Shown here in pieces: positions 1-19,376 of a stretch of DNA of 30,953 bases. Position numbers and translations under genes: made by a program. The notes under the pieces were generated by a model. The model saw nothing but the letters and a program-made list of their open reading frames with translations, searched no databases and was not told the DNA's origin. The stretch is from an uncultured Bdellovibrionales bacterium (GTDB lineage Bacteria > Patescibacteriota > Minisyncoccia > Moranbacterales > DUUL01), in contig CAZRER010000001.1 of assembly GCA_964599525.1 (NCBI GenBank), positions 1 through 30,953 on the forward strand, given 5' to 3'. Every line of letters starts with the position of its first letter. The stretch's first letter is position 1.

Positions 1-561
1 TTTTTTTATTTTCTTTATCATCTCATCAATCTGCTTGTAAGTATCCTCCAGACTTCCTCCATTATCAATCACAAAATCAGCTAGTTTTTTTAATCCTGGT
101 ACATCCCTATCAGATTCTTGATTTTGACTAGCTTTTAGTTTCTCTAGGGTTTGCTCTCGATCATCAACTTTCTCCTGACGTTGAGTTATCCTGTTTAGAA
201 TAACTTCCACTGGGGCATCTACAAAAGCAAAAACGAAATTTTCTACCTTATTTTTAAAATAATTCAACTCCGCTTCCTTGCGAATTCCATCAAAAACAAT
301 AATTTCTGCTTCTTCATTTTTAATATCCCCCTCTAGGACTCTCGATAAAATATCCCCTCCAAACATATCTCTTAAACCATTGGCAATTGTATTTAAATTA
401 TCTCGGTCATAATCTAAATAAAGACGTTCTAAAATATCCGCCAATATTTTAGAATAACGCATTTGTTGTGCTTGATATTTTTCCTTTAGATAATCTGTAA
501 CCGTCCCCTTCCCCGCTCCAATATTCCCTGCTATTCCAATAACTATTTTTTTCTCTGACAT
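1..561 (-). CDS. P-loop nucleoside-monophosphate kinase-like protein (dNMP kinase / dephospho-CoA kinase-like fold), paralog A; 3'-truncated by window edge
   Basis: Not in the ORF track. Manual translation from ATG at 561: MSEKKIVIGIAGNIGAGKGTVTDYLKEKY...DGIRKEAE...LADFVIDNGGSLEDTYKQIDEMIKK, open to position 1. Walker A GNIGAGKGT; colinear with the ORFs at 5165 and 6253. Confidence 0.85.
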   Translation of the reverse strand, partial: MSEKKIVIGIAGNIGAGKGTVTDYLKEKYQAQQMRYSKILADILERLYLDYDRDNLNTIANGLRDMFGGDILSRVLEGDIKNEEAEIIVFDGIRKEAELNYFKNKVENFVFAFVDAPVEVILNRITQRQEKVDDREQTLEKLKASQNQESDRDVPGLKKLADFVIDNGGSLEDTYKQIDEMIKKIKK

Positions 562-568
562 AATTTAT

Positions 569-613
569 ATTATTTAAACTTATAAAAATTATTTAAACTT
601 ATAAAAATTATTT
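569..613. repeat. 19-bp tandem duplication (ATTATTTAAACTTATAAAA x2 plus a partial third copy)
   Basis: Identical units at 569-587 and 588-606, then ATTATTT at 607-613. Confidence 0.9.
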
Positions 614-658
614 CCCCGTACTACCAAAACCACTCTACCTTCGATCGATATTTTCTAA
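608..658 (-). pseudogene. dut: dUTPase C-terminal remnant (decayed motif V)
   Basis: Minus-strand frame reads L-E-N-I-D-R-R-*-S-G-F-G-S-T-G-K-*, matching trimeric dUTPase motif V (..RGEGGFGSTG). AGG, TAG and AGT are each one substitution from Gly, Glu and Gly codons. Confidence 0.8.
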
Positions 659-667
659 TAATTTTAA

Positions 668-997
668 TTACCTATCGTCACCATCACCACTCAAAACACC
701 TCTGTCCATTCTACTATATAATTTTTCTATATTTTTTTGGGCAATATCATCCATCTGCAAATCTAATTCTGTGGCTAGTTGAGCAATGTACCATAAAACA
801 TCACCTAACTCTTTTATTATATCATTTTTAAAATTATCATCTACAACACTTCCTTTGTCACGAATTAGTTTTTTCACCTTTTCAGAAACCTCTCCGGCTT
901 CACCTGAGAGCCCTAATGTTGGATAAATAATATTTTTTCCAGCTTCTGGGTAAATAGCTGTTTTTCTTGATTTTTTTTGATATTCATTAAAATTCAT
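668..997 (-). CDS. MazG-like (all-alpha) nucleoside triphosphate pyrophosphohydrolase
   Basis: 109 aa with GLSGEAGEVSEKVKK and KELGDVLWYIAQLA, i.e. the ExxE...ExxD metal-binding pattern of the MazG/all-alpha NTP-PPase superfamily. Confidence 0.88.
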   Translation of the reverse strand: MNFNEYQKKSRKTAIYPEAGKNIIYPTLGLSGEAGEVSEKVKKLIRDKGSVVDDNFKNDIIKELGDVLWYIAQLATELDLQMDDIAQKNIEKLYSRMDRGVLSGDGDDR

Positions 998-1027
998 TGT
1001 TTTTGTTCATTAAATAATTAAATATTT

Positions 1028-1058
1028 ATTGAAAATTTAAAATTGAAAATTGAAAATT
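1028..1058. repeat. Heptamer tandem array (ATTGAAA)n
   Basis: ATTGAAA ATTTAAA ATTGAAA ATTGAAA ATT, between the dut N-terminal remnant and the MazG-like gene. Confidence 0.8.
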
Positions 1059-1140
1059 ACCTTTCCATCCCTGCATCAGTAGTATGAGCATATTCCGGCA
1101 ACCGAGCTTTTTTATCCAATTTTTTAATTTGTATTTTCAT
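1057..1140 (-). pseudogene. dut: dUTPase N-terminal remnant (27 aa)
   Basis: Manual translation MKIQIKKLDKKARLPEYAHTTDAGMER*. This is the typical trimeric dUTPase N-terminus (KL...A.LP.YAH..DAGxDL), broken inside motif I. Confidence 0.85.
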
Positions 1141-1141
1141 C

Positions 1142-1166
1142 TAATTCTTAATTCTTAATTCTTAAT
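1142..1166. repeat. Heptamer tandem array (TAATTCT)x3
   Basis: TAATTCT at 1142, 1149 and 1156, then TAATT overlapping the tmk stop codon. Confidence 0.8.
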
Positions 1167-1866
1167 TATTAACTATCCCCCTCCAAATCATTTCACTAAT
1201 TTCCTCAATACTTAATAATTTTCCATTTTTAGCACACTGAATATCTACCCAGTTATTATTTTCTTTCACTAAATTCAAAGCACTTCGCTTGGCATTTAAT
1301 AAGTGCTGAGGATCATTCTCGTGAGCATCTTTTTTCCCAGCGAGATATTTTTTCTTTTCTAGATTATCTTTATTTTTTAATAATTCCAAGCTTAATTTCA
1401 AAGGTACATTCAAAAAAATAATTTGATCTGGTTTAGGAATTTTGAAAATATCGAATTCCATTTTATCCAACCAATCTAAAAATATTCTTCTTTTCCGAGA
1501 GTCTAAAATTTTTCCGCCCTGATGAATTTGATTAGAATTAGCATAGCGGTCAGCGATAACTATACAACCTTGTTTTAACCATTTTTTAATTTTAGTACTA
1601 GACTCAAATCTATCCGCAGCGTATAAAACCGAAGCAATTTTAGGATCAAGTTTAGCAAAGTCTCCGTGCTCGCCAGCTAAACATTCGCCAATTAATTTTC
1701 CAAAAAAGTTCTTTTCATACTGTGGAAAATCAATTGTTCGTACTTTATAACCCTCCTTTTTTAATCTTTTAATCAACAAATTTGTTTGCGTTTTTTTGCC
1801 ACTACCATCAATCCCCTCCACTACGATAAATCTCCCCCCTCGAACTTTTTTAATTTTATTTTTCAT
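1162..1866 (-). CDS. tmk: Thymidylate kinase
   Basis: FIVVEGIDGSGKKTQ P-loop, LYAADR, IADRY, IPKPD..IFL and D.HE lid motifs. Start moved to the ATG at 1866 (MKNKIKK); the track's 1932 start adds 22 residues with no recognisable motif. Confidence 0.93.
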   Translation of the reverse strand: MKNKIKKVRGGRFIVVEGIDGSGKKTQTNLLIKRLKKEGYKVRTIDFPQYEKNFFGKLIGECLAGEHGDFAKLDPKIASVLYAADRFESSTKIKKWLKQGCIVIADRYANSNQIHQGGKILDSRKRRIFLDWLDKMEFDIFKIPKPDQIIFLNVPLKLSLELLKNKDNLEKKKYLAGKKDAHENDPQHLLNAKRSALNLVKENNNWVDIQCAKNGKLLSIEEISEMIWRGIVNN

Positions 1867-1979
1867 CTGTATTCGCCCCCGAACTTTTAATGAATTAAAA
1901 TCTAATTCTCTCTTATTAACTTTTAGGCTCACTTACTACTATTGAGTTATATGAGCCCAATAATAATTAAATTGACATC

Positions 1980-2436: not shown

Positions 2437-2576
2437 TACAAGGTTACTTTTACAATATAATTCTTTATATTTCAACTATTCAAAATTATTAACAATTTTA
2501 ATTAGTTTTTTAGGCATAATAAATTCCGTAACTATTGGCGGATAATGTTTTAAATCAAAATATATATTTTAACACT

Positions 2577-2612
2577 TAATGCAAATTAACAGTTTACTGC
2601 TAATTTGCATTA
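2577..2612. repeat. Inverted repeat, 12-bp perfect arms
   Basis: TAATGCAAATTA (2577-2588) / TAATTTGCATTA (2601-2612); inner CAG/CTG can extend the stem. Confidence 0.75.
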
Positions 2613-2663
2613 TATATTAACGGACAAATTACCCAGCATAAAATTATTTTCACAATGTACTAC

Positions 2664-2707
2664 TTTATGTTTCAGTTACCGACGACCGTCGGTAATTGAA
2701 ACATAAA
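2664..2707. repeat. Long palindrome, 21-bp arms, 2-nt loop
   Basis: TTTATGTTTCAGTTACCGACG-AC-CGTCGGTAATTGAAACATAAA; one G:T mismatch. Confidence 0.9.
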
Positions 2708-2798
2708 AAGATATAAATATACAAACAAATACACGGATACACAGATAATTATCAAAACATACAAATCTCACCAACTCCACCTCAACATCGACTTCTCC

Positions 2799-2827
2799 TT
2801 GACATAATAACAATAATAATCCATACT
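2799..2827 (+). promoter_or_regulatory. Sigma70 promoter of the orphan gene
   Basis: TTGACA (2799-2804), 17 bp, CATACT (2822-2827); AGGAG Shine-Dalgarno at 2887-2891 before the ATG at 2898. Confidence 0.7.
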
Positions 2828-2897
2828 AATTTTAGATAGGAGTGGAGCTCATTTCAAAAAAAGCGGGAAACTTCCCGTCAAAAGCTAGGAGAAAACA

Positions 2898-3293
2898 ATG
2901 GAAACAATCAAAACGAGTCGTGAAGAAATACCGTCAGATTGGAAATTTTGTGTGGTTGAGAAAGGGGGTGCAAATACAATTCTAGAAGCAGCAGAGAAGC
3001 TTGATGACTATGCTCAAGCTGAGAGTGTGGTATGTTACAACAATACTGACGGATATCCCGCCAGCATTATTAGTTCTCGCCATTTCCCAATGGGATACAA
3101 ACAGTACACCGGAAATCTTGGAGAATATTTTTTCTTCTCACGGACGAAAGAGGTAGAGGTGCCGGGAGTTGAGATGATTCTTTTAGAAAAAGCAAAGGAC
3201 TGGAAAGGTGATATTCTTCCCAAATTATGGATATGTAAATTTGTATTCGTCTCAGGGAAACATTACAAAGATCTTGTTTTTTATAATTTATAA
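2898..3293 (+). CDS. Hypothetical protein (orphan, 131 aa)
   Basis: Own promoter, SD and terminator; G-rich coding-like composition; no motif recognised. Confidence 0.75.
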   Translation: METIKTSREEIPSDWKFCVVEKGGANTILEAAEKLDDYAQAESVVCYNNTDGYPASIISSRHFPMGYKQYTGNLGEYFFFSRTKEVEVPGVEMILLEKAKDWKGDILPKLWICKFVFVSGKHYKDLVFYNL

Positions 3294-3309
3294 ACTTAAA
3301 ATCCACCAT

Positions 3310-3350
3310 TCATCTAAGGTACAAAGTACCTTAGATGACTTTTTTTATTT
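3310..3350 (+). terminator. Intrinsic terminator
   Basis: TCATCTAAGGTAC-AAA-GTACCTTAGATGA 13-bp perfect stem followed by a T-tract. Confidence 0.8.
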
Positions 3351-3433
3351 TTCAGTTGTTGATCAGAAACCACAAATTACTCTTCTTAAAAAAACTCTAC
3401 TCGTTTTTTAAAAATTATAATTATCATTTTTAA

Positions 3434-3593
3434 TTATTCAAAAAAATTTTGGCTTCGACCATTTTTTAATAGTTCCTGCACCTCTTCTAAAGAAACTTTT
3501 TTGGTCATTCCTACTCCATCACTAGTTCTGAATGTAAACGCCCCCCTCATTACAATCTATAAAAGTACCTGCATATTCTGTATTCCCAAACAT
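3434..3593 (-). pseudogene. Possible frameshifted gene remnant of unknown family
   Basis: Two overlapping short minus-strand frames: MFGNTEYAGTFIDCNEGGVYIQN* (3593-3522) and MRGAFTFRTSDGVGMTKKVSLEEVQELLKNGRSQNFFE* (3550-3434). They overlap at a C6 run, and the segment is more GC-rich than its flanks. Confidence 0.3.
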
Positions 3594-3711
3594 AATAAAA
3601 AATATTTTACCATTAATTTCTTGTTTTAATTCTTCAATAATTTTTTATTTATTTTCTTACCTATTTTTTATTTGCTACATTTTTTAATAAATTTATTTGT
3701 TTTTGATAAAA

Positions 3712-5061
3712 TTATTTCTCCACAATATCCTGTTCACCTCGTTTGATGTCAAATTTGTTGGGGGTGCTGTCAATATGTAAAGTTAGTCCATCTTTCTTGA
3801 AAAGTTTTTCCAAACTAGAAATCATCTTTAACATTTGCTTTACCAATGTTGGATGCACAAAACGAGTAGAACGCAACTCCACCAAATAAGTCAAAGCTTT
3901 TAAATCTCCCACCACCCGACAAGGCACTTGATAACCCATCGGGATATAATATTGCTTAATAAATTTATCAACTTTTAATTTAGCAATTAACCGTTTTTGC
4001 TCTTGTAAAAATTTCTTAGCTTCTTTTCTTAAGTCCTCTGGCAACTGTTCTAAATACCAATCATTAAACCCGTGTCGCATAGTCAATAAAGGCATTCGCT
4101 GAGCTACCGCTCGATGTCGTTGGAGATCGCGAAAAGAACCAAAATCCAACAAAAACTCATACCCAACTACTCCACATTCAGCAATGATATTGGGCAATTC
4201 TGTTTTCGGTGGTCGCTTCTTCATTTCCTGTTGATGATTTTTTAATATTTTTTTATCAATATTATTAAATAATAATTTAAAATCCTCGGCCTTGGCATTT
4301 TCAAAATAATATTTTTTCTGCATTACATACTCATTATATTTTTCTGTTTCCTTATATCTTTTATGTCCAAAAGATTGTGGATAAATTTGTCGCAAAGCTT
4401 TCTCTGTCTTCTCGGCAATATCTCTAACTTCTGCCAAAGGATGATGTCGTAACATCATTAACTCATCAGCAAATTGTCTAAAATTCATTCGCCAAGCAAC
4501 ATTAGTTGTTGCCCCTGCTGACAACCAAGCCCTTGTAATATCAAAAGCTCGCGCCACAATTGCTTTATTATAAACTGTCTCATTTTCTCCCTTTTGTCTG
4601 GGATGTTTTTCTTTTAAAAATTCTTGCACTGGTTTTTGAGCTTGCAAATAAAACTCTCGCCAATTTTCCAAAACTTTCTCTCCTGTTTTTGTCTTTTTAG
4701 GATTAAGAAAAATTTGCTTAGAAAAATCAACATAACGAGTAGATGCTTCTTGTCCGGAGTACAATCGCCAATCTTGGATTGCTTTTGCCGCCAACATAGA
4801 AACCCCTTCCACAAAAACCGTTACACTTCCACAGTCACCGATAGACTTGTGTCCATAACCAACATAAAATTGCTCCATAAAATTTTCCGCTCCTTTTTCT
4901 TTTAATATTCTTAAATGATGTTTAATCCCTCCCGTAGAACGAGAATGTAAAGCTTGTAACATTGCTTCCGCTTGCCCATCAATCTCCGCTCCCGTATCTA
5001 AAACTAAAACAAAGCTCCCTTTGTTTTTTAATGGTTCTACAATGTGTTTTATTTTTTTCAT
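3712..5061 (-). CDS. thyX: FAD-dependent thymidylate synthase, tandem-domain (about double-length) type
   Basis: 449 aa. N-half GYGHKSIGDC and QEASTRY; C-half FRDLQRHR and ELRS...HP, all ThyX/Thy1 motifs. Confidence 0.9.
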   Translation of the reverse strand: MKKIKHIVEPLKNKGSFVLVLDTGAEIDGQAEAMLQALHSRSTGGIKHHLRILKEKGAENFMEQFYVGYGHKSIGDCGSVTVFVEGVSMLAAKAIQDWRLYSGQEASTRYVDFSKQIFLNPKKTKTGEKVLENWREFYLQAQKPVQEFLKEKHPRQKGENETVYNKAIVARAFDITRAWLSAGATTNVAWRMNFRQFADELMMLRHHPLAEVRDIAEKTEKALRQIYPQSFGHKRYKETEKYNEYVMQKKYYFENAKAEDFKLLFNNIDKKILKNHQQEMKKRPPKTELPNIIAECGVVGYEFLLDFGSFRDLQRHRAVAQRMPLLTMRHGFNDWYLEQLPEDLRKEAKKFLQEQKRLIAKLKVDKFIKQYYIPMGYQVPCRVVGDLKALTYLVELRSTRFVHPTLVKQMLKMISSLEKLFKKDGLTLHIDSTPNKFDIKRGEQDIVEK

Positions 5062-7214: not shown

Positions 7215-8744
7215 TTATCTCGCATATTCCACCGCCTTCGTTTCCCGAAGCAAATTTACTTTAATTTCTCCAGGATAATTCAAGTCAGCTTCAATTTTTT
7301 CCGCAATACTTTTAGCAAGTTTAATTGCTCCCAAATCATCAACCTTTTCTGGATTAACAAAAACTCGAATTTCCCTACCGGCTTGAATAGCATAGCATTT
7401 ATTAACCTCGCTAAAACTATTTGCCGTATCTTCTATCTCCTCCAATCGTTTTAAATAATTTTCCAACGTGTCTTTTCTAGCACCAGGGCGAGAAGCACTT
7501 AAAGCGTCAGCAGCAGCAACAATTAAAGAGTAACTATTTTCAAAAGGATAATCTTCATGATGAGATTTCATAGCATCAATAATATCCTGTGACTGCTTAA
7601 ACTTCTTCAAAATACTTATACCCAATTCTATATGAGTACCTTGCACCTCTGCATCAACAGCCTTACCAATATCGTGTAATAACCCAGCTTTCTTAGCAAG
7701 GTTAGTATCCAAACCAAGCTCCGCTGCTAAATATCCCGAAAGATGCGCCACTTCTAAAGAATGCAACAATACATTCTGTCCAAAACTAGTTCGATATCTT
7801 AATCGTCCTAATAACTGTGTGAGTTTAGGATCAAACCCCGCAATACCCACATCGTAAACCGCTGCTTCCCCAGCCTCCATTGCTCTTTTGGAAACAAGTT
7901 CTTTAGCTTCCTTAACGGCTTCCTCAATTCTTGTTGGGTGTATTCGTCCGTCCTCCAAAAGTTTTTCTAAAGTCAAACGAGCCGTCTCTCGACGAATTGG
8001 ATTAAAAGCAGAAATAACAATAGCTTCTGGTGTATCGTCAACAATAATTTCCGCCCCAGTCAATCTTTCAATAGCTTTTATATTTCGCCCCTCCCGACCA
8101 ATTATCCTTCCCTTTAATTCGTCAGAAGCAATTGAAATAGTTGTAGTTGTTGTATCTGCGCTATGAGAACCAGCATATTTTTGCATCGCCATCACCATAA
8201 TATCCTTTGCTTTTTCCTCTAGGATCTCTTTTCTATCTCTTTCCAAAGAGGCCAATCCTTTTGTAACTTCATCTTTATGTGCCTTTTCGGCAACAGCTAT
8301 TAAAACTTTTTGAGCATCTTCCCTTTTCATTTCAGCAATTTTCTCTAGTCTTTCTATTTGTTGTTCTTTTACTTTCAAAATCTCTTCTCTAATATTTTTT
8401 ATTTCTCCCGCTTTGTGCTCTAATCTTTTTTTATCTTTTTCTATTTTGGAAATTTTTTGATCAATTTTTTGTTCTTTTTGTTCTAATCTGTCTTCTCGTT
8501 GCTGGATAGAACTCCTCCTCTTGGTTTCTTCTTTTTTAACCTCTTCTAAAATTCGAACTCCCTTATCTTTAACATCTAATAACTGCTCTTTTGCTTTCAT
8601 TTTAGCCTCATCCAATAATCTGGCAGCTTTTTCTTCTGCCGTACCAACCTGATTTTTGGCTACCAACTTTCTAATTACATAGCCAACAACTAACCCAGTT
8701 AGCAATGCTCCCGTTGCTATAATTATTGCTGTTGAAATATTCAT
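7215..8744 (-). CDS. rny: Ribonuclease Y
   Basis: N-terminal TM, coiled coil, KH domain (KGRIIGREGRNI), HD domain (LLHSLEV...LLHDIGK), C-terminal AIQAGREIRV. Confidence 0.97.
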   Translation of the reverse strand: MNISTAIIIATGALLTGLVVGYVIRKLVAKNQVGTAEEKAARLLDEAKMKAKEQLLDVKDKGVRILEEVKKEETKRRSSIQQREDRLEQKEQKIDQKISKIEKDKKRLEHKAGEIKNIREEILKVKEQQIERLEKIAEMKREDAQKVLIAVAEKAHKDEVTKGLASLERDRKEILEEKAKDIMVMAMQKYAGSHSADTTTTTISIASDELKGRIIGREGRNIKAIERLTGAEIIVDDTPEAIVISAFNPIRRETARLTLEKLLEDGRIHPTRIEEAVKEAKELVSKRAMEAGEAAVYDVGIAGFDPKLTQLLGRLRYRTSFGQNVLLHSLEVAHLSGYLAAELGLDTNLAKKAGLLHDIGKAVDAEVQGTHIELGISILKKFKQSQDIIDAMKSHHEDYPFENSYSLIVAAADALSASRPGARKDTLENYLKRLEEIEDTANSFSEVNKCYAIQAGREIRVFVNPEKVDDLGAIKLAKSIAEKIEADLNYPGEIKVNLLRETKAVEYAR

Positions 8745-16027: not shown

Positions 16028-16744
16028 TTACCTTCTTATAGAAACATCTTCAATTGTTGTCTCCATTATGTTTTTAATTTTTTCCAAATCAATTTCTTCC
16101 CCCTTAATTCTCCTAGTCAATGTTTCATCTAAAATTTTACCATTATCTTCATACTTTTGCAAAATATATTTTCGACTTCCAGCCAACCACTTAGCCACCT
16201 CTTTAAATTCATCTACAGTATGCAAACCAGGAACTACAGTTGTTCTAAATTCATAATCTACTCCAGAGTTTCTAATTAACTCTACACTTAATTTTATTCG
16301 CTCTAGATCCAGTTTAATATCGCCACAAACTTTTTCATAATTATTCAAACTACTTTTAATATCCATGGCTACATAATCCACCAATTTCTTATCAAACAAC
16401 TCTTTCAACACATCTGGTCTAGTTCCATTAGAGTCTAATTTTACCGTAAAACCCAGATCCTTAATTCTCTTAATAAAATCCGCTAAATCAGCCTGAAGTG
16501 TTGGCTCCCCACCAGTAATACAAACACCATCAAGTTTCCCCTGACGACTTTTCAAAAATTCAAAAAACTCCTCCACCTGCCTCTCGTTTTGTTCACTACT
16601 GTAAACTGTGAACTGTGAACTAAGAACCAATTCTGGGTTATGACAAAACGGACACCGAAAATTACAGCCCACCGTAAAAACAGTCGCCGCCACCTTCCCC
16701 GGATAATCTATCAACGTCATCTTCTGTAAACCACCTAAAAGCAT
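16028..16744 (-). CDS. nrdG: Anaerobic ribonucleoside-triphosphate reductase activating protein (radical SAM, NrdG-type)
   Basis: GGLQKMTLIDYPGKVAATVFTVGCNFRCPFCHNPEL (CxxxCxxC), VCITGGEPTLQ, KLDSNG, YEFRTTVVP. Confidence 0.9.
   Translation of the reverse strand: MLLGGLQKMTLIDYPGKVAATVFTVGCNFRCPFCHNPELVLSSQFTVYSSEQNERQVEEFFEFLKSRQGKLDGVCITGGEPTLQADLADFIKRIKDLGFTVKLDSNGTRPDVLKELFDKKLVDYVAMDIKSSLNNYEKVCGDIKLDLERIKLSVELIRNSGVDYEFRTTVVPGLHTVDEFKEVAKWLAGSRKYILQKYEDNGKILDETLTRRIKGEEIDLEKIKNIMETTIEDVSIRR
16598..16627. repeat. Heptamer array inside the nrdG coding sequence
   Basis: ACTGTAA ACTGTGA ACTGTGA ACTAAGA AC; read in frame as part of VLSSQFTVYSS. Confidence 0.75.
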
Positions 16745-16796: not shown

Positions 16797-19376
16797 TTAT
16801 TCAGCTAGAGTAGTTTCTATAGAGGGATTATTTTCTTCGTCTGAATTGGGCACCTCATCTACAATCGTTGTATCGTCAGAAATCAAAACTTCTCTCGGTT
16901 TTGAACCATTAGCTGGACCAATAACTCCGTTTTCTTCTAGGGCATCAATTATCTTTGCTGAACGATTATAACCAATACTCAATCTTCTTTGCAAGGAAGA
17001 TATTGATGCCTGCCCTGCAGCGATTACCATCTCTTTCGCTTGACTATATAAAACATCATCACTTGAGTTCTCCCCTTCTCGAACATCTCCCGAAACAACT
17101 GTTTCATCCAATTTTCCTTCCAATGATTCTTTTAAAGCTTCATCCTTTTTAAATTTAACTTTTTTAGCTTGCTTTTTGATATATTCAATTAATTTAGAGG
17201 TTTCTTCCTCAGACACAAACGGTCCTTGGATTCTAGTTGGCTGTGGATAGCCTGGACCCATATAAAGCATATCCCCATTACCCAATAATTTTTCTGCCCC
17301 AGGACGATCCAAAATAGTTCGCGAATCAACATTTCCAGCCACCTTGAAAGCAATTCTAGCTGGAATATTATTCTTAATAGTTCCGGTAATAACGTTAGTA
17401 TCTGGTCTCTGAGTAGATAAAATTAAATGAATACCAACTGCCCGAGCCATTTGCGATAGTCGTACTATCAATGCCTCCACCTCCTTACCATGAGTAGCCA
17501 TTAAATCTGCCAACTCGTCAATAACAATTACAATATACGGCATTTTTGAAAGTTCTTCTTGTCTTATTTCTCCGGATTCCATATCTACTACTTGTCTAGT
17601 TTCTTTATTAGACGCTTTTAAATTATAAGACTCAATATTCTTCGAACCAACTTCTTCTAATAATTTATACCGGGAATCCATTTCATTAGTAGCCCATTTT
17701 AAAGTGTTAACCACCTTATTCATATCAACAATAACCTTTGTTAATAAATGAGGAATACCGTTATAGGCAGAAAGTTCAACTCTTTTTGGATCAACCAAGA
17801 TAAGTTGTAAATCGTCTGGAGAATTTTTAAAAATTAAAGAAGATAAAATAGCATTAATACAAACACTTTTACCAGTGTTTGTTGATCCAGCTACTAATAA
17901 ATGTGGCATTTTTTCTAACCCAGTTATAATCGAATTACCATTAACATCATTACCTAATGCTATGGTTAATTTTGAGGTAGCCTCTCTAAATTCTTCCTCT
18001 TCAAATAATGTTCTCAATCGAATCATTGTTGCCTTGCTATTTGGCACCTCAATTCCAATCAATGAAGTTCCCGGTATAGGCGCCTCAATTCTAATTGCCG
18101 AAGCTGCCAAAGTCATAGCAATATTACTCTGTAAGGCAACAATCTTACTTAACATTACTCCCCTTGGAGGAGAAAAAGTATATTGTGTTACCGTCGGACC
18201 AATATTAAATCCACTAGGCTCCAATTCAATTCCAAATTCTAAAGCAGTTCTTTGGATAATATCAATATTGTTTTCAATATTTTTTTCTCCGCTACCTTTC
18301 TCACTTTTTTCAAAAATTGAAGGCGATGGCTGTTTCCATTTCGATTTGCTGACTATTCGTTTTGTCTCTTTTCTCGGTGTCCTTGTTTTAATGGTTCGAT
18401 GCGATTTAAAAGATAAATTTTTCTCATTTTCATTTTTTACCTTGTCTCTATCCAATTGCCCTGAAATAAGTCGTTCTCCTTCTTTGGTAATTTTTTGAGT
18501 CCTAATTGGTGACATTTCATCAATAAATTTAACTGATTTTATATTGTCTCCAAGCTCCTCTATTTTTTCTTTTTTTCTCTCTTTTTTACTTTTAAATATT
18601 CTCTTAAAAAATCCCTGTTTTTCTTTTTTCTCATCATCTGCTTCTTCATTTATTTTATCTTTATTTTTTTTGTTTTGATTTTGATCTTGTTGGCTCTGTA
18701 AAATATTCTGGGTTGCAGTATTAATTCCGTTGATATTATTGTTTGAGATAGTTAAAGCCTTGCCACTATGAGCCTCTAAGCCACCACTTTCTTCTTCTAG
18801 TTTGTCATTTTTAAATTTAAAAAAATCTTTTAATTTATGTAACCAATTAAAAACTGGAACGTTAAACAAGAGCATAAAACCAATTAAAGCCAAACTAAAC
18901 AAAGCCACAATTCCTGCAAATCTTCCAATTAATTTTATCAAAGAATAGGCAACAATCAAACCAACATATCCTCCACCCGAACCATCTTTAGCAACTTTAG
19001 TCATATTATCAATATCGTAAAAAGAATGTATCAGACCTATTCCTGCCAAGAAAAAAAGCAATACCCCACTGGTTGCCAAATAATATCTCACTGTTTGCAT
19101 CCTCTTAAAATACATCACACCCAGTGATACAAGCAGAATTGGCAAAACATATCGTCCCGCACCAAAAAATAGAGTTAAGATTTTATCAATAAATTTACCA
19201 ACAATTCCTGCTTGCCCAAAAAGACTTAAGGAAAATACTAACGCGAACAACAACAGTATAATTGCCGCAATATGTTTGCGAACTTCCTTTTTTAATATTT
19301 TTTCGCTATTTACTTTTTTATTTCCACTTACCCCGCTTGATGATTTCTTTTTTTTATTTTTTAATTTTCTTCCCAT
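16797..19376 (-). CDS. ftsK: DNA translocase FtsK/SpoIIIE
   Basis: N-terminal 4-TM domain, linker, PHLLVAGSTNTGKS Walker A, VIVIDELADLM, STQRP, GAEKLLGNGDML, gamma domain ASISSLQRRLSIGYNRSA. Confidence 0.97.
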   Translation of the reverse strand: MGRKLKNKKKKSSSGVSGNKKVNSEKILKKEVRKHIAAIILLLFALVFSLSLFGQAGIVGKFIDKILTLFFGAGRYVLPILLVSLGVMYFKRMQTVRYYLATSGVLLFFLAGIGLIHSFYDIDNMTKVAKDGSGGGYVGLIVAYSLIKLIGRFAGIVALFSLALIGFMLLFNVPVFNWLHKLKDFFKFKNDKLEEESGGLEAHSGKALTISNNNINGINTATQNILQSQQDQNQNKKNKDKINEEADDEKKEKQGFFKRIFKSKKERKKEKIEELGDNIKSVKFIDEMSPIRTQKITKEGERLISGQLDRDKVKNENEKNLSFKSHRTIKTRTPRKETKRIVSKSKWKQPSPSIFEKSEKGSGEKNIENNIDIIQRTALEFGIELEPSGFNIGPTVTQYTFSPPRGVMLSKIVALQSNIAMTLAASAIRIEAPIPGTSLIGIEVPNSKATMIRLRTLFEEEEFREATSKLTIALGNDVNGNSIITGLEKMPHLLVAGSTNTGKSVCINAILSSLIFKNSPDDLQLILVDPKRVELSAYNGIPHLLTKVIVDMNKVVNTLKWATNEMDSRYKLLEEVGSKNIESYNLKASNKETRQVVDMESGEIRQEELSKMPYIVIVIDELADLMATHGKEVEALIVRLSQMARAVGIHLILSTQRPDTNVITGTIKNNIPARIAFKVAGNVDSRTILDRPGAEKLLGNGDMLYMGPGYPQPTRIQGPFVSEEETSKLIEYIKKQAKKVKFKKDEALKESLEGKLDETVVSGDVREGENSSDDVLYSQAKEMVIAAGQASISSLQRRLSIGYNRSAKIIDALEENGVIGPANGSKPREVLISDDTTIVDEVPNSDEENNPSIETTLAE

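Follow-up and report, generated by a model that had tools for sequence, protein, structure and literature searches.

Whether one enzyme can be replaced by a non-orthologous one at the very position of its gene, and whether the newcomer then takes over the old function, is the question raised by a thymidylate operon in genome G000. The DNA analysed, here called the window, comprises the first 30,953 bases of a 44,088-bp contig (C1) of this genome, whose assembly of 851 kb in 108 contigs is 86.6% complete. Homologues of the window's proteins carry the names Candidatus Moranbacteria or Moraniibacteriota, of the Candidate Phyla Radiation (CPR)/Patescibacteria, and reads holding the k-mers of the region come from hydrothermal-vent metagenomes. 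Near the start of the window, an intact gene for a 109-residue protein of the MazG family (all-alpha NTP pyrophosphatases) lies between the two ends of a broken dut, the gene of trimeric dUTPase (Dut, PF00692). That dut was displaced in situ by this gene, as a sequence-only reading of the DNA had proposed, is well supported and very probably correct; it is borne out by real dut remnants, by the equivalence of the slot in related operons, and by the anticorrelation of the two genes among genomes. The fuller reading, a displacement within the thymidylate operon with the MazG taking over the role of Dut, is given a probability of about 0.6.

The upstream end of dut is nearly unchanged. The sequence-only reading had placed a 27-codon dut N-terminus ahead of the MazG-like gene, and the coordinates, the translation, and matches by tblastn and by a hidden Markov model (HMM) all agree with it. 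In tblastn, positions 1140-1063 align to residues 6-31 of the Dut of G002, a genome of the same genus, with 61.5% identity and an E value of 1.6e-8; the same query also finds the C-terminal part, up to GFGSTG. When a Dut HMM derived from 12 relatives is run against the whole genome translated in six frames (56,049 fragments), one match is significant, at 1060-1140 (E 1.5e-6, HMM positions 6-31). The remnant is closest to the G002 Dut (YAH.TDAGM) and scores 29.5 bits; the corresponding segment scores 31-36 in intact Duts, which are members of the training set of the HMM and thus slightly inflated in score.

The downstream end had been described as a decayed motif V on the same strand, and it is indeed a Dut C-terminus. 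The pattern GFGS[TS]G occurs twice in the 1,701,576 six-frame codons of the genome, and one of the two copies lies here, at 611-634, on the same strand as the N-terminal remnant, about 400 nt downstream of it, and one codon before a stop, the spacing found in real Duts. Its Ser-Thr-Gly codons, AGT ACG GGG, are those of the G002 dut. The fragment scores 10.3 bits where intact Dut ends reach 16-22, and its decay consists of the TAG and the loss of two conserved glycines, all G-to-A/T changes at first codon positions, or about three changes in 51 nt. Decay is detectable at the C-terminal end only.

With regard to membership in the trimeric dUTPases, the region of the N-terminal strand and motif I is present, and so, in degraded form, is motif V (RG..GFGSTG). 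Motifs II-IV (HMM positions 32-137) have no match between or around the remnants, in keeping with the claim that the core is gone and that the MazG open reading frame (ORF) occupies its place. At this locus dut survives as a remnant and is no longer a functional member of the family. An intact dut elsewhere was also looked for, and no intact gene of PF00692, PF08761, or PF22769 was found in the 86.6% complete assembly. For the dimeric dUTPases (PF08761), the genome gives no match at E values up to 10, nor does the 109-residue protein. A weak PF00692 match at 7998-8165 was rejected as a Dut, being the KH domain of RNase Y. Searches of the assembly for dCTP deaminase (DCD) and of the genome for uracil-DNA glycosylase (UDG) found neither.

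The sequence at the two junctions between dut and the MazG gene is as follows. The dut frame stops matching after ...GGG ATG GA, where it is followed by AGGTAATT, a heptamer-containing spacer, and the MazG gene; the latter ends in ...GAT AGG TAA TT, and the C-terminal dut sequence resumes directly after it. AGGTAATT is thus an 8-bp direct repeat at both junctions, identical to the last codon, the stop codon, and the next 2 nt of the MazG gene itself. Counting both strands, the window contains three copies of it (about three expected), and two of those copies are the two junctions. Among 94 MazG loci, a repeat of the gene's terminal 8-mer upstream of its own start is found in this one only. Because Arg109 and the stop are native to the MazG subfamily, the left copy must derive from the 3' end of a MazG gene, so the incoming DNA was slightly longer than one unit (389 + 8 bp) and probably stemmed from a MazG cassette that was circular or repeated in tandem, or from a donor in which such copies stood in a row. 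The coordinates are collected in Table 1.

Table 1. Features of the thymidylate operon and of the dut scar, in window coordinates.
Feature	Position	Strand	Remarks
P-loop kinase	6837-6253	-	upstream part of thymidylate operon
dCMP deaminase	6228-5728	-	upstream part of thymidylate operon
P-loop kinase	5707-5165	-	upstream part of thymidylate operon
ThyX, 449 aa, long two-domain type	5061-3712	-	PF02511, E 1.5e-19; 82% identity to L167 ThyX
HAD-like ORF, 78 aa	2216-1980	-	internally deleted HAD hydrolase, two ends left
tmk (thymidylate kinase)	1932-1162	-	PF02223, E 8e-25; 78% identity to G002 Tmk
dut N-terminal remnant, ATG start, 27 codons + stop	1140-1057	-	N-terminal strand, start of motif I (DAGM-)
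Incoming spacer upstream of MazG	1062-998	-	opens with left AGGTAATT copy (1062-1055), then heptamer array
Heptamer array, TTTTCAA-like	1055-1028	-	in spacer before MazG
MazG-family gene (all-alpha NTP pyrophosphatase), intact, 109 aa	997-668	-	PF03819, E 7.8e-11
Right AGGTAATT copy	673-666	-	last Arg codon, stop and 2 nt of MazG
dut C-terminal remnant, motif V GFGSTG, 17 codons	658-608	-	one in-frame TAG; two conserved Gly replaced
P-loop (d)NMP-kinase-like gene	561-1, to contig end	-	AAA_18, AAA_17 and CoaE matches

The slot that the scar occupies is a conserved one. Loci with tmk and MazG were gathered from relatives, metagenomes, and contigs of one genome per species, annotated with local HMMs, and checked against Pfam. 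They share the operon (DCD or dCMP deaminase)-(kinases)-(ThyX or ThyA-DHFR)-Tmk-X-GatB, with MiaA convergent, and the position X between Tmk and GatB holds MazG in 18 loci, Dut in 11, both in one, and neither in three. The exchange can be seen in collinear operons, as DCD-ThyA-DHFR-kinase-Tmk-Dut-GatB-MiaA (L063, G036) recurs with MazG in place of Dut (L083, L092). Relatives of the same order and family have an intact Dut directly after Tmk, others a MazG; the same-family genome G014 is collinear with the window in kinase-dCMP deaminase-kinase-ThyX-Tmk-Dut. On the Tmk tree, at least seven changes of state between Dut and MazG are required, and the swap is therefore recurrent. The sequence-only reading had expected Dut in some relatives and MazG in others, which is what is seen, and had expected them to be mutually exclusive, which fails once: in L148 (Parcubacteria GW2011_GWC1_36_108, 2447-3830), the order is Tmk, Dut (141 aa), MazG (112 aa), GatB, all intact, in the only such operon seen. 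L148, with the side-by-side arrangement that the sequence-only reading had named as grounds against functional replacement, may represent a transitional, redundant stage of displacement.

The surroundings of the slot are less constant among close relatives. Collinearity is loose on the downstream side, where the kinase of G014 shares only 22% identity with that of the window; the true orthologue of the window's kinase is found after tmk in G002 and after MazG in L166 (58% identity). In G002 the order is tmk, a 161-aa gene, kinase, with dut elsewhere in the genome, and other relatives have tmk-158 aa-gyrB (L051), tmk-flavoprotein (L050), tmk-TrpR-like-MazG (G003), and DHFR-BroN-MazG-kinase (L166). 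In two genomes with neither dut nor MazG, G018 (L029:2220-2813) and G012 (L030), Tmk is followed by a 197-aa ORF; a stretch of the GX5EX7REUXEE type noticed by eye had suggested a Nudix enzyme, and the assignment was dropped as there was no Pfam match. No dut remnants were found around 94 other MazG loci or at any other fetched locus, and the scar is thus peculiar to this lineage. On the same grounds, the idea of MazG as a mobile element that targets dut was rejected.

The two genes also avoid each other at the level of whole genomes. Two samples of kin were used, 41 relatives and 151 genomes taken evenly from the class. Among the 41 relatives, eight have a MazG orthologue (counted at 48% identity or more), 20 have a full-length Dut, and none has both; among the 151, the numbers are 11 (this genome included), 47, and none. 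In the union of the samples, trimeric Dut is present in 0/18 genomes with MazG and in 64/170 of the others, as the sequence-only reading had predicted. Fisher tests on the kin samples give p = 0.002, 0.014, and, for the union, 3.5e-4; since the genomes are related, these values and the one below overstate independence. Within-family contrasts (f1, f3, f6, and f62) all point in the same direction.

Further genomes with MazG, five from outside the CPR and 50 in a wider set, were examined for Dut. The former (Prochlorococcus, Cyanobium, Micavibrio, a metagenome-assembled genome (MAG) of Solirubrobacterales, and a MAG of 0.8 Mb) lack Dut in all five cases and have dCTP deaminase in four of the five. 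In the wider set a Dut-type protein occurs in 3/50, side by side with MazG in L148 and somewhere in the genome in the other two. Across all MazG genomes examined, full-length trimeric Dut is present in 3/73, compared with 64/170 of those without MazG (p = 4e-9, Fisher). The pattern is anticorrelated but not strictly complementary.

By sequence and predicted fold, the incoming protein is an intact member of its family. It scores 42.5 bits against PF03819 (cut-off 22, E 7.8e-11) and matches the phage family phrog_229 with an E value of 1e-37. The four residues of the EXXE...EXXD metal site, Glu33, Glu36, Glu63, and Asp66, are invariant in 40 homologues of 49-76% identity, which also keep several Lys and Arg residues, Tyr6, Tyr25, Trp69-Tyr70, and a C-terminal RG..G.GDNR tail. 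This tail, together with YP..GL.GE.GE and ELGDVLWY, forms the motif set of the subfamily. The AlphaFold2 model (pLDDT 92.4) is a four-helix fold with helices at 3-11, 24-48, 54-77, and 82-99. Foldseek matches it to YpjD, mouse and human DCTPP1, Bacillus MazG (BcMazG), DR2231 (solved with dUMPNPP), and EcMazG, with probabilities of about 1.0, E values of about 0.01-0.1, and identities of 13-23%, while a profile search of the PDB sequences finds iMazG, BcMazG, and YpjD at E values of about 1e-4 (2e-4 to 5e-4). The predicted fold says that this is a single-domain NTP pyrophosphatase whose nearest neighbours are pyrimidine-dNTP enzymes, and no more than that. The NCBIfam library holds no model specific to this MazG family.

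The family is large, with 14,576 clusters at 50% identity for E values up to 0.001 and 5,944 for values up to 1e-10, and fused two-domain homologues exist. The best match to the MazG of the window is 76% identical. Loci of Prochlorococcus and Cyanobium match at 60-62% over all 109 residues, and the picocyanobacterial "small MazG" most likely belongs to this subfamily. Phages of Roseobacter, Streptomyces, Gordonia, and Mycobacterium carry full-length homologues of 44-52% identity; in Gordonia phages Looper, Strosahl, and Rosalind (H57-H59), such a homologue (about 44%) is annotated directly beside a ThyX-like synthase. The MazGs of cyanomyoviruses are 33-41% identical over residues ~21-100 only.

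With its metal site intact and expressed from the position of Dut, the 109-residue MazG most likely hydrolyses pyrimidine dNTPs, namely dUTP and possibly dCTP. The products would be the monophosphate and pyrophosphate, so that dUMP would be fed to ThyX and dUTP kept low, as by Dut in the sister operons. dUTP as a main physiological substrate is plausible on the evidence of gene context. MazG takes the Dut slot of collinear operons and is anticorrelated with Dut. It adjoins DCD, or shares an operon with it, in genomes lacking Dut (G004, G037, G003, L083, L092, L131, and L154), while in Dut-less genomes of Prochlorococcus, Cyanobium, and Solirubrobacterales, DCD is encoded elsewhere. The product of dCTP deaminase is dUTP. 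In G000, where no DCD was found, there is a class III ribonucleotide reductase (RNR), NrdD; this enzyme reduces NTPs and would therefore yield dUTP directly. In the Gordonia phages, MazG stands beside ThyX.

Several observations weigh against the explanation preferred here. Roughly half of the class (~75/151) has neither gene, and loss of Dut may simply be tolerated, especially as no UDG was found. The coexistence in L148 shows that exclusivity is not absolute, and with the assembly 86.6% complete, a dut may lie on unassembled DNA. In the closest relatives by Tmk that have MazG (G003, L167), the divergence of MazG is similar to that of Tmk and ThyX. The nearest solved structures, at 13-23% identity, include dCTPases (DCTPP1) as well as the dUTP-active DR2231. 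A PRA-PH-like all-alpha pyrophosphatase beside nrdR-nrdD could do the work of a dUTPase in G000. Finally, the MazG of cyanophage S-PM2, a distant homologue and the one relative in the broad family that has been assayed, is promiscuous, with Km values in the millimolar range (3.2 mM for dUTP), and prefers dGTP and dCTP (PMC6850273). Its kinetics were set aside as direct evidence, being weak in view of the partial-length similarity of the cyanomyovirus MazGs given above.

The small pyrophosphatase just mentioned is a 115-aa protein of the PRA-PH family on contig C5 (L003:1396-1743), just upstream of nrdR (L003:2413-2853) and nrdD (C5:4365-6448); NrdD appears to be split, or extended into a 100-aa ORF with the C-terminal part. 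In G014, the intact Dut is directly followed by a gene for a marginally MazG-like protein of 105 aa, from another subfamily (L174:8191-8508). Taken together, these two cases indicate that small all-alpha pyrophosphatases of other subfamilies coexist with Dut.

The strongest alternative accepts the scar as real and denies that the MazG substitutes for Dut: the protein would be a dCTPase or a house-cleaning pyrophosphatase of dNTPs in general, and dut would have been dispensable in a lineage without UDG. As a dCTPase it could still supply dUMP, by way of dCTP, dCMP, and dCMP deaminase, as do T4 gp56 with Cd or phage modules of the Xp12 type. A gene for dCMP deaminase does belong to the operon of the window and to at least 13 MazG operons; such a gene is equally frequent in Dut operons (9/12) and so does not discriminate. 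A pairing of MazG with dCMP deaminase and of Dut with DCD would have favoured a dCTPase, and was rejected because both operon types occur with both deaminases. The DCD-type MazG operons of L083, L092, and G003 have no dCMP deaminase and make dUTP, in genomes where no Dut was found. The fold is nearest to that of mouse and human DCTPP1 (TM score about 0.7), and the substrate preference of S-PM2 MazG also lies on the side of a dCTPase. The genomes with neither gene, the lack of a detected UDG, and the coexistence of Dut and MazG in L148 suit this alternative; the strong genome-level anticorrelation with Dut would be unexpected for an unrelated house-cleaning enzyme. A dual dCTP/dUTP pyrophosphatase would satisfy all the observations, and would merge the dCTPase alternative with the explanation preferred here. 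On balance, an enzyme that does not stand in for Dut is considered unlikely, at something like one chance in four.

A displacement in which MazG took over from Dut also has to be reconciled with how the scar was made. The ancestral operon would have been kinase-dCMP deaminase-kinase-ThyX-Tmk-Dut. Into its dut, a foreign or relocated piece of about 397 bp, consisting of one MazG-family gene with its upstream spacer and bearing AGGTAATT at both ends, would have been joined by illegitimate recombination, with the loss of about 100 dut codons (motifs II-IV) and the survival of 27 N-terminal and 17 C-terminal codons. We infer that the insertion of MazG and the deletion of the dut core took place in a single event. 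Around the insert, neither a recombinase nor long inverted repeats nor any other mark of a mobile element was found, and promoter and terminator signals there do not rise above background. Between the glycine-rich tail of MazG (SGDG, at 680-692) and that of the Dut remnant (SGFG, at 623-635), 57 nt apart, 11 of 13 nt agree (GAGTGGTGATGGT and GAGTGGTTTTGGT), which is probably coincidence but could act as microhomology. The spacer ahead of MazG is similar to the one between tmk and MazG in L167 (ATTTTAAATTTT), and a second tandem heptamer array, at 1142-1169 in the spacer between tmk and dut, means that arrays flank the N-terminal dut remnant.

The event is young. As the N-terminal remnant is undecayed and the C-terminal one has about three changes, it must be much younger than the splits between genera. 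The closest sampled relatives differ from the window by 18-27% at the protein level (identities of 73-78% for Tmk, 82% for ThyX, and 76% for MazG), and the Tmk identities suggest that synonymous sites at genus-level splits would be largely saturated. That MazG has diverged about as much as Tmk and ThyX, with a best match of 76%, implies a donor outside the sample; its history may be either horizontal gene transfer or a move within the genome.

A sequence of two events would make the co-location uninformative on function: dut would have died first, by internal deletion, and a circular or tandem MazG cassette would later have integrated into the dead gene at the 8-bp site. The HAD-like ORF, 400 nt away on the upstream side of tmk, has lost its core with nothing inserted, and a 389-bp circle integrating by one crossover at AGGTAATT would leave exactly the terminal repeat observed. 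Against these points, MazG would have had to land by chance in the slot that it holds in 18 other operons, AGGTAATT is the native end of MazG and no recognisable dut sequence, and the undecayed N-terminal remnant leaves little time between two events. Two separate events are accordingly improbable, at well below the odds given to an enzyme unconnected with Dut.

In the HAD-like ORF itself, residues 3-29 and 211-232 of the 235-aa HAD protein of L166 match 2216-2136 and 2063-1998, respectively (tblastn). The two ends are still in one frame, and the ORF forms a second case beside tmk of ends kept and core gone.

The scar is not an artefact of assembly. Over window positions 1-1907, a metagenome contig of independent origin (L049) shows 99.5% identity, with all differences at 1567-1892, seven within tmk and the others just 5' of the ATG at 1866, which is probably the true start of tmk; the remnants and MazG are identical between the two. 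Five public runs from three studies contain 63-94% of the sampled 31-mers of positions 520-1260. Short as the remnants are (27 and 17 codons), chance similarity in AT-rich spacer DNA or an assembly chimera is effectively refuted by the genome-wide E value of the N-terminal fragment, by a motif as rare as GFGSTG standing in the right order, strand, and distance with a stop behind it, by the nearest relationship of both fragments to a same-genus Dut with shared codons, and by the structurally identical contig and the k-mers in five runs; the remnants are neither chance nor artefact.

Two other genes of the window were also identified. The 859-aa gene at 16797-19376 is FtsK and not an RNR, and the 238-aa gene at 16028-16744, noted earlier as nrdG, encodes a radical-SAM protein; the NrdD of the genome is on another contig.

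The proposed exchange of Dut for MazG has partial counterparts among known systems. In T4, gp56 is a dual dCTPase/dUTPase that acts with Cd, Td, Frd, and gp1. The T4 set likewise brings together a pyrophosphatase, a dCMP deaminase, a thymidylate synthase, DHFR, and dNMP kinases, but its pathway is a phage pathway tied to cytosine replacement, and the likeness is one of enzyme-set logic. DR2231 of Deinococcus radiodurans (PDB 2yf3, 5hva) shares the all-alpha four-helix fold (Foldseek probability 1.0, TM score 0.6-0.7) and demonstrates that MazG-like enzymes can hydrolyse dUTP; at 13-17% identity and 130-150 aa, and without the C-terminal RG..G.GDNR tail, it resembles the present protein by fold only. 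DCTPP1/RS21-C6 (PDB 2oig, 6sqw, 7mu5) also ranks among the best fold matches (TM score ~0.7) and acts as a pyrophosphatase on pyrimidine dNTPs, but it is eukaryotic, 18-23% identical, and prefers dCTP and 5-modified dCTP. The closest solved proteins by sequence profile, the integron-cassette iMazG (PDB 2q73) and YpjD/BcMazG (2gta, 5ie9), have the same single-domain architecture, although they are only remotely related and may act on other substrates in the cell. DCTPP1 is reported to influence the pools of dCTP, dTTP, and dUTP (PMC7162842).

The nearest precedent for the exchange itself comes from staphylococcal phages, in which trimeric and dimeric dUTPases alternate at the same genome position (PMC5608427). 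There, as here, an all-beta trimeric Dut and an all-alpha enzyme of the NTP pyrophosphatase class share one slot in related genomes. In the phages of S. aureus, however, both enzymes are proven dUTPases and no scar has been described, while here the operon is cellular, the newcomer is an uncharacterised single-domain MazG, and the ends of dut survive. Within the MazG family, the phrog_229 phage proteins and the picocyanobacterial small MazG resemble the protein of the window, and the assayed cyanomyovirus MazG is a more distant branch; the paper on S-PM2 MazG left the host "small MazG" (e.g., Syn_WH7803_01219) uncharacterised (PMC6850273).

None of the known dUTPases is present in a large number of prokaryotes, including cyanobacteria (PMC5122711, "Life without dUTPase"; 2025 review PMC12524310). 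The MazG family has been named there only as a guess for the missing activity, with no specific protein (PMC5122711; PMC12524310), and in full-text searches of the literature neither a dUTPase role for this subfamily nor a dut scar was found described. The present locus turns the guess into a specific candidate, one well-conserved subfamily of 109 aa, by three lines of evidence: its place in the Dut slot of the thymidylate operon, its strong anticorrelation with Dut, and the physical overwriting of dut in this genome. Non-orthologous displacement is usually inferred from phyletic patterns, and it is rare for such a swap to be recorded directly, as it is here by the two ends of the displaced gene on either side of the incoming one and by the signature at the insertion junctions.

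The family reaches ecologically dominant organisms, cyanobacteria of the Prochlorococcus type, and hundreds of cultured phages. It is conceivable, though tentative and somewhat short of an even chance, that the subfamily is a specific dUTPase or a dual dUTP/dCTPase and represents the "missing dUTPase" of many bacteria without dut. If so, it would serve this role in many CPR/Patescibacteria, Prochlorococcus, marine Synechococcus, Solirubrobacterales, and Micavibrio, and it would be the supplier of dUMP in many actinophages and roseophages, sometimes next to ThyX. The scar would then record a swap in a single step, viable only because the incoming gene took on the job of Dut at once.

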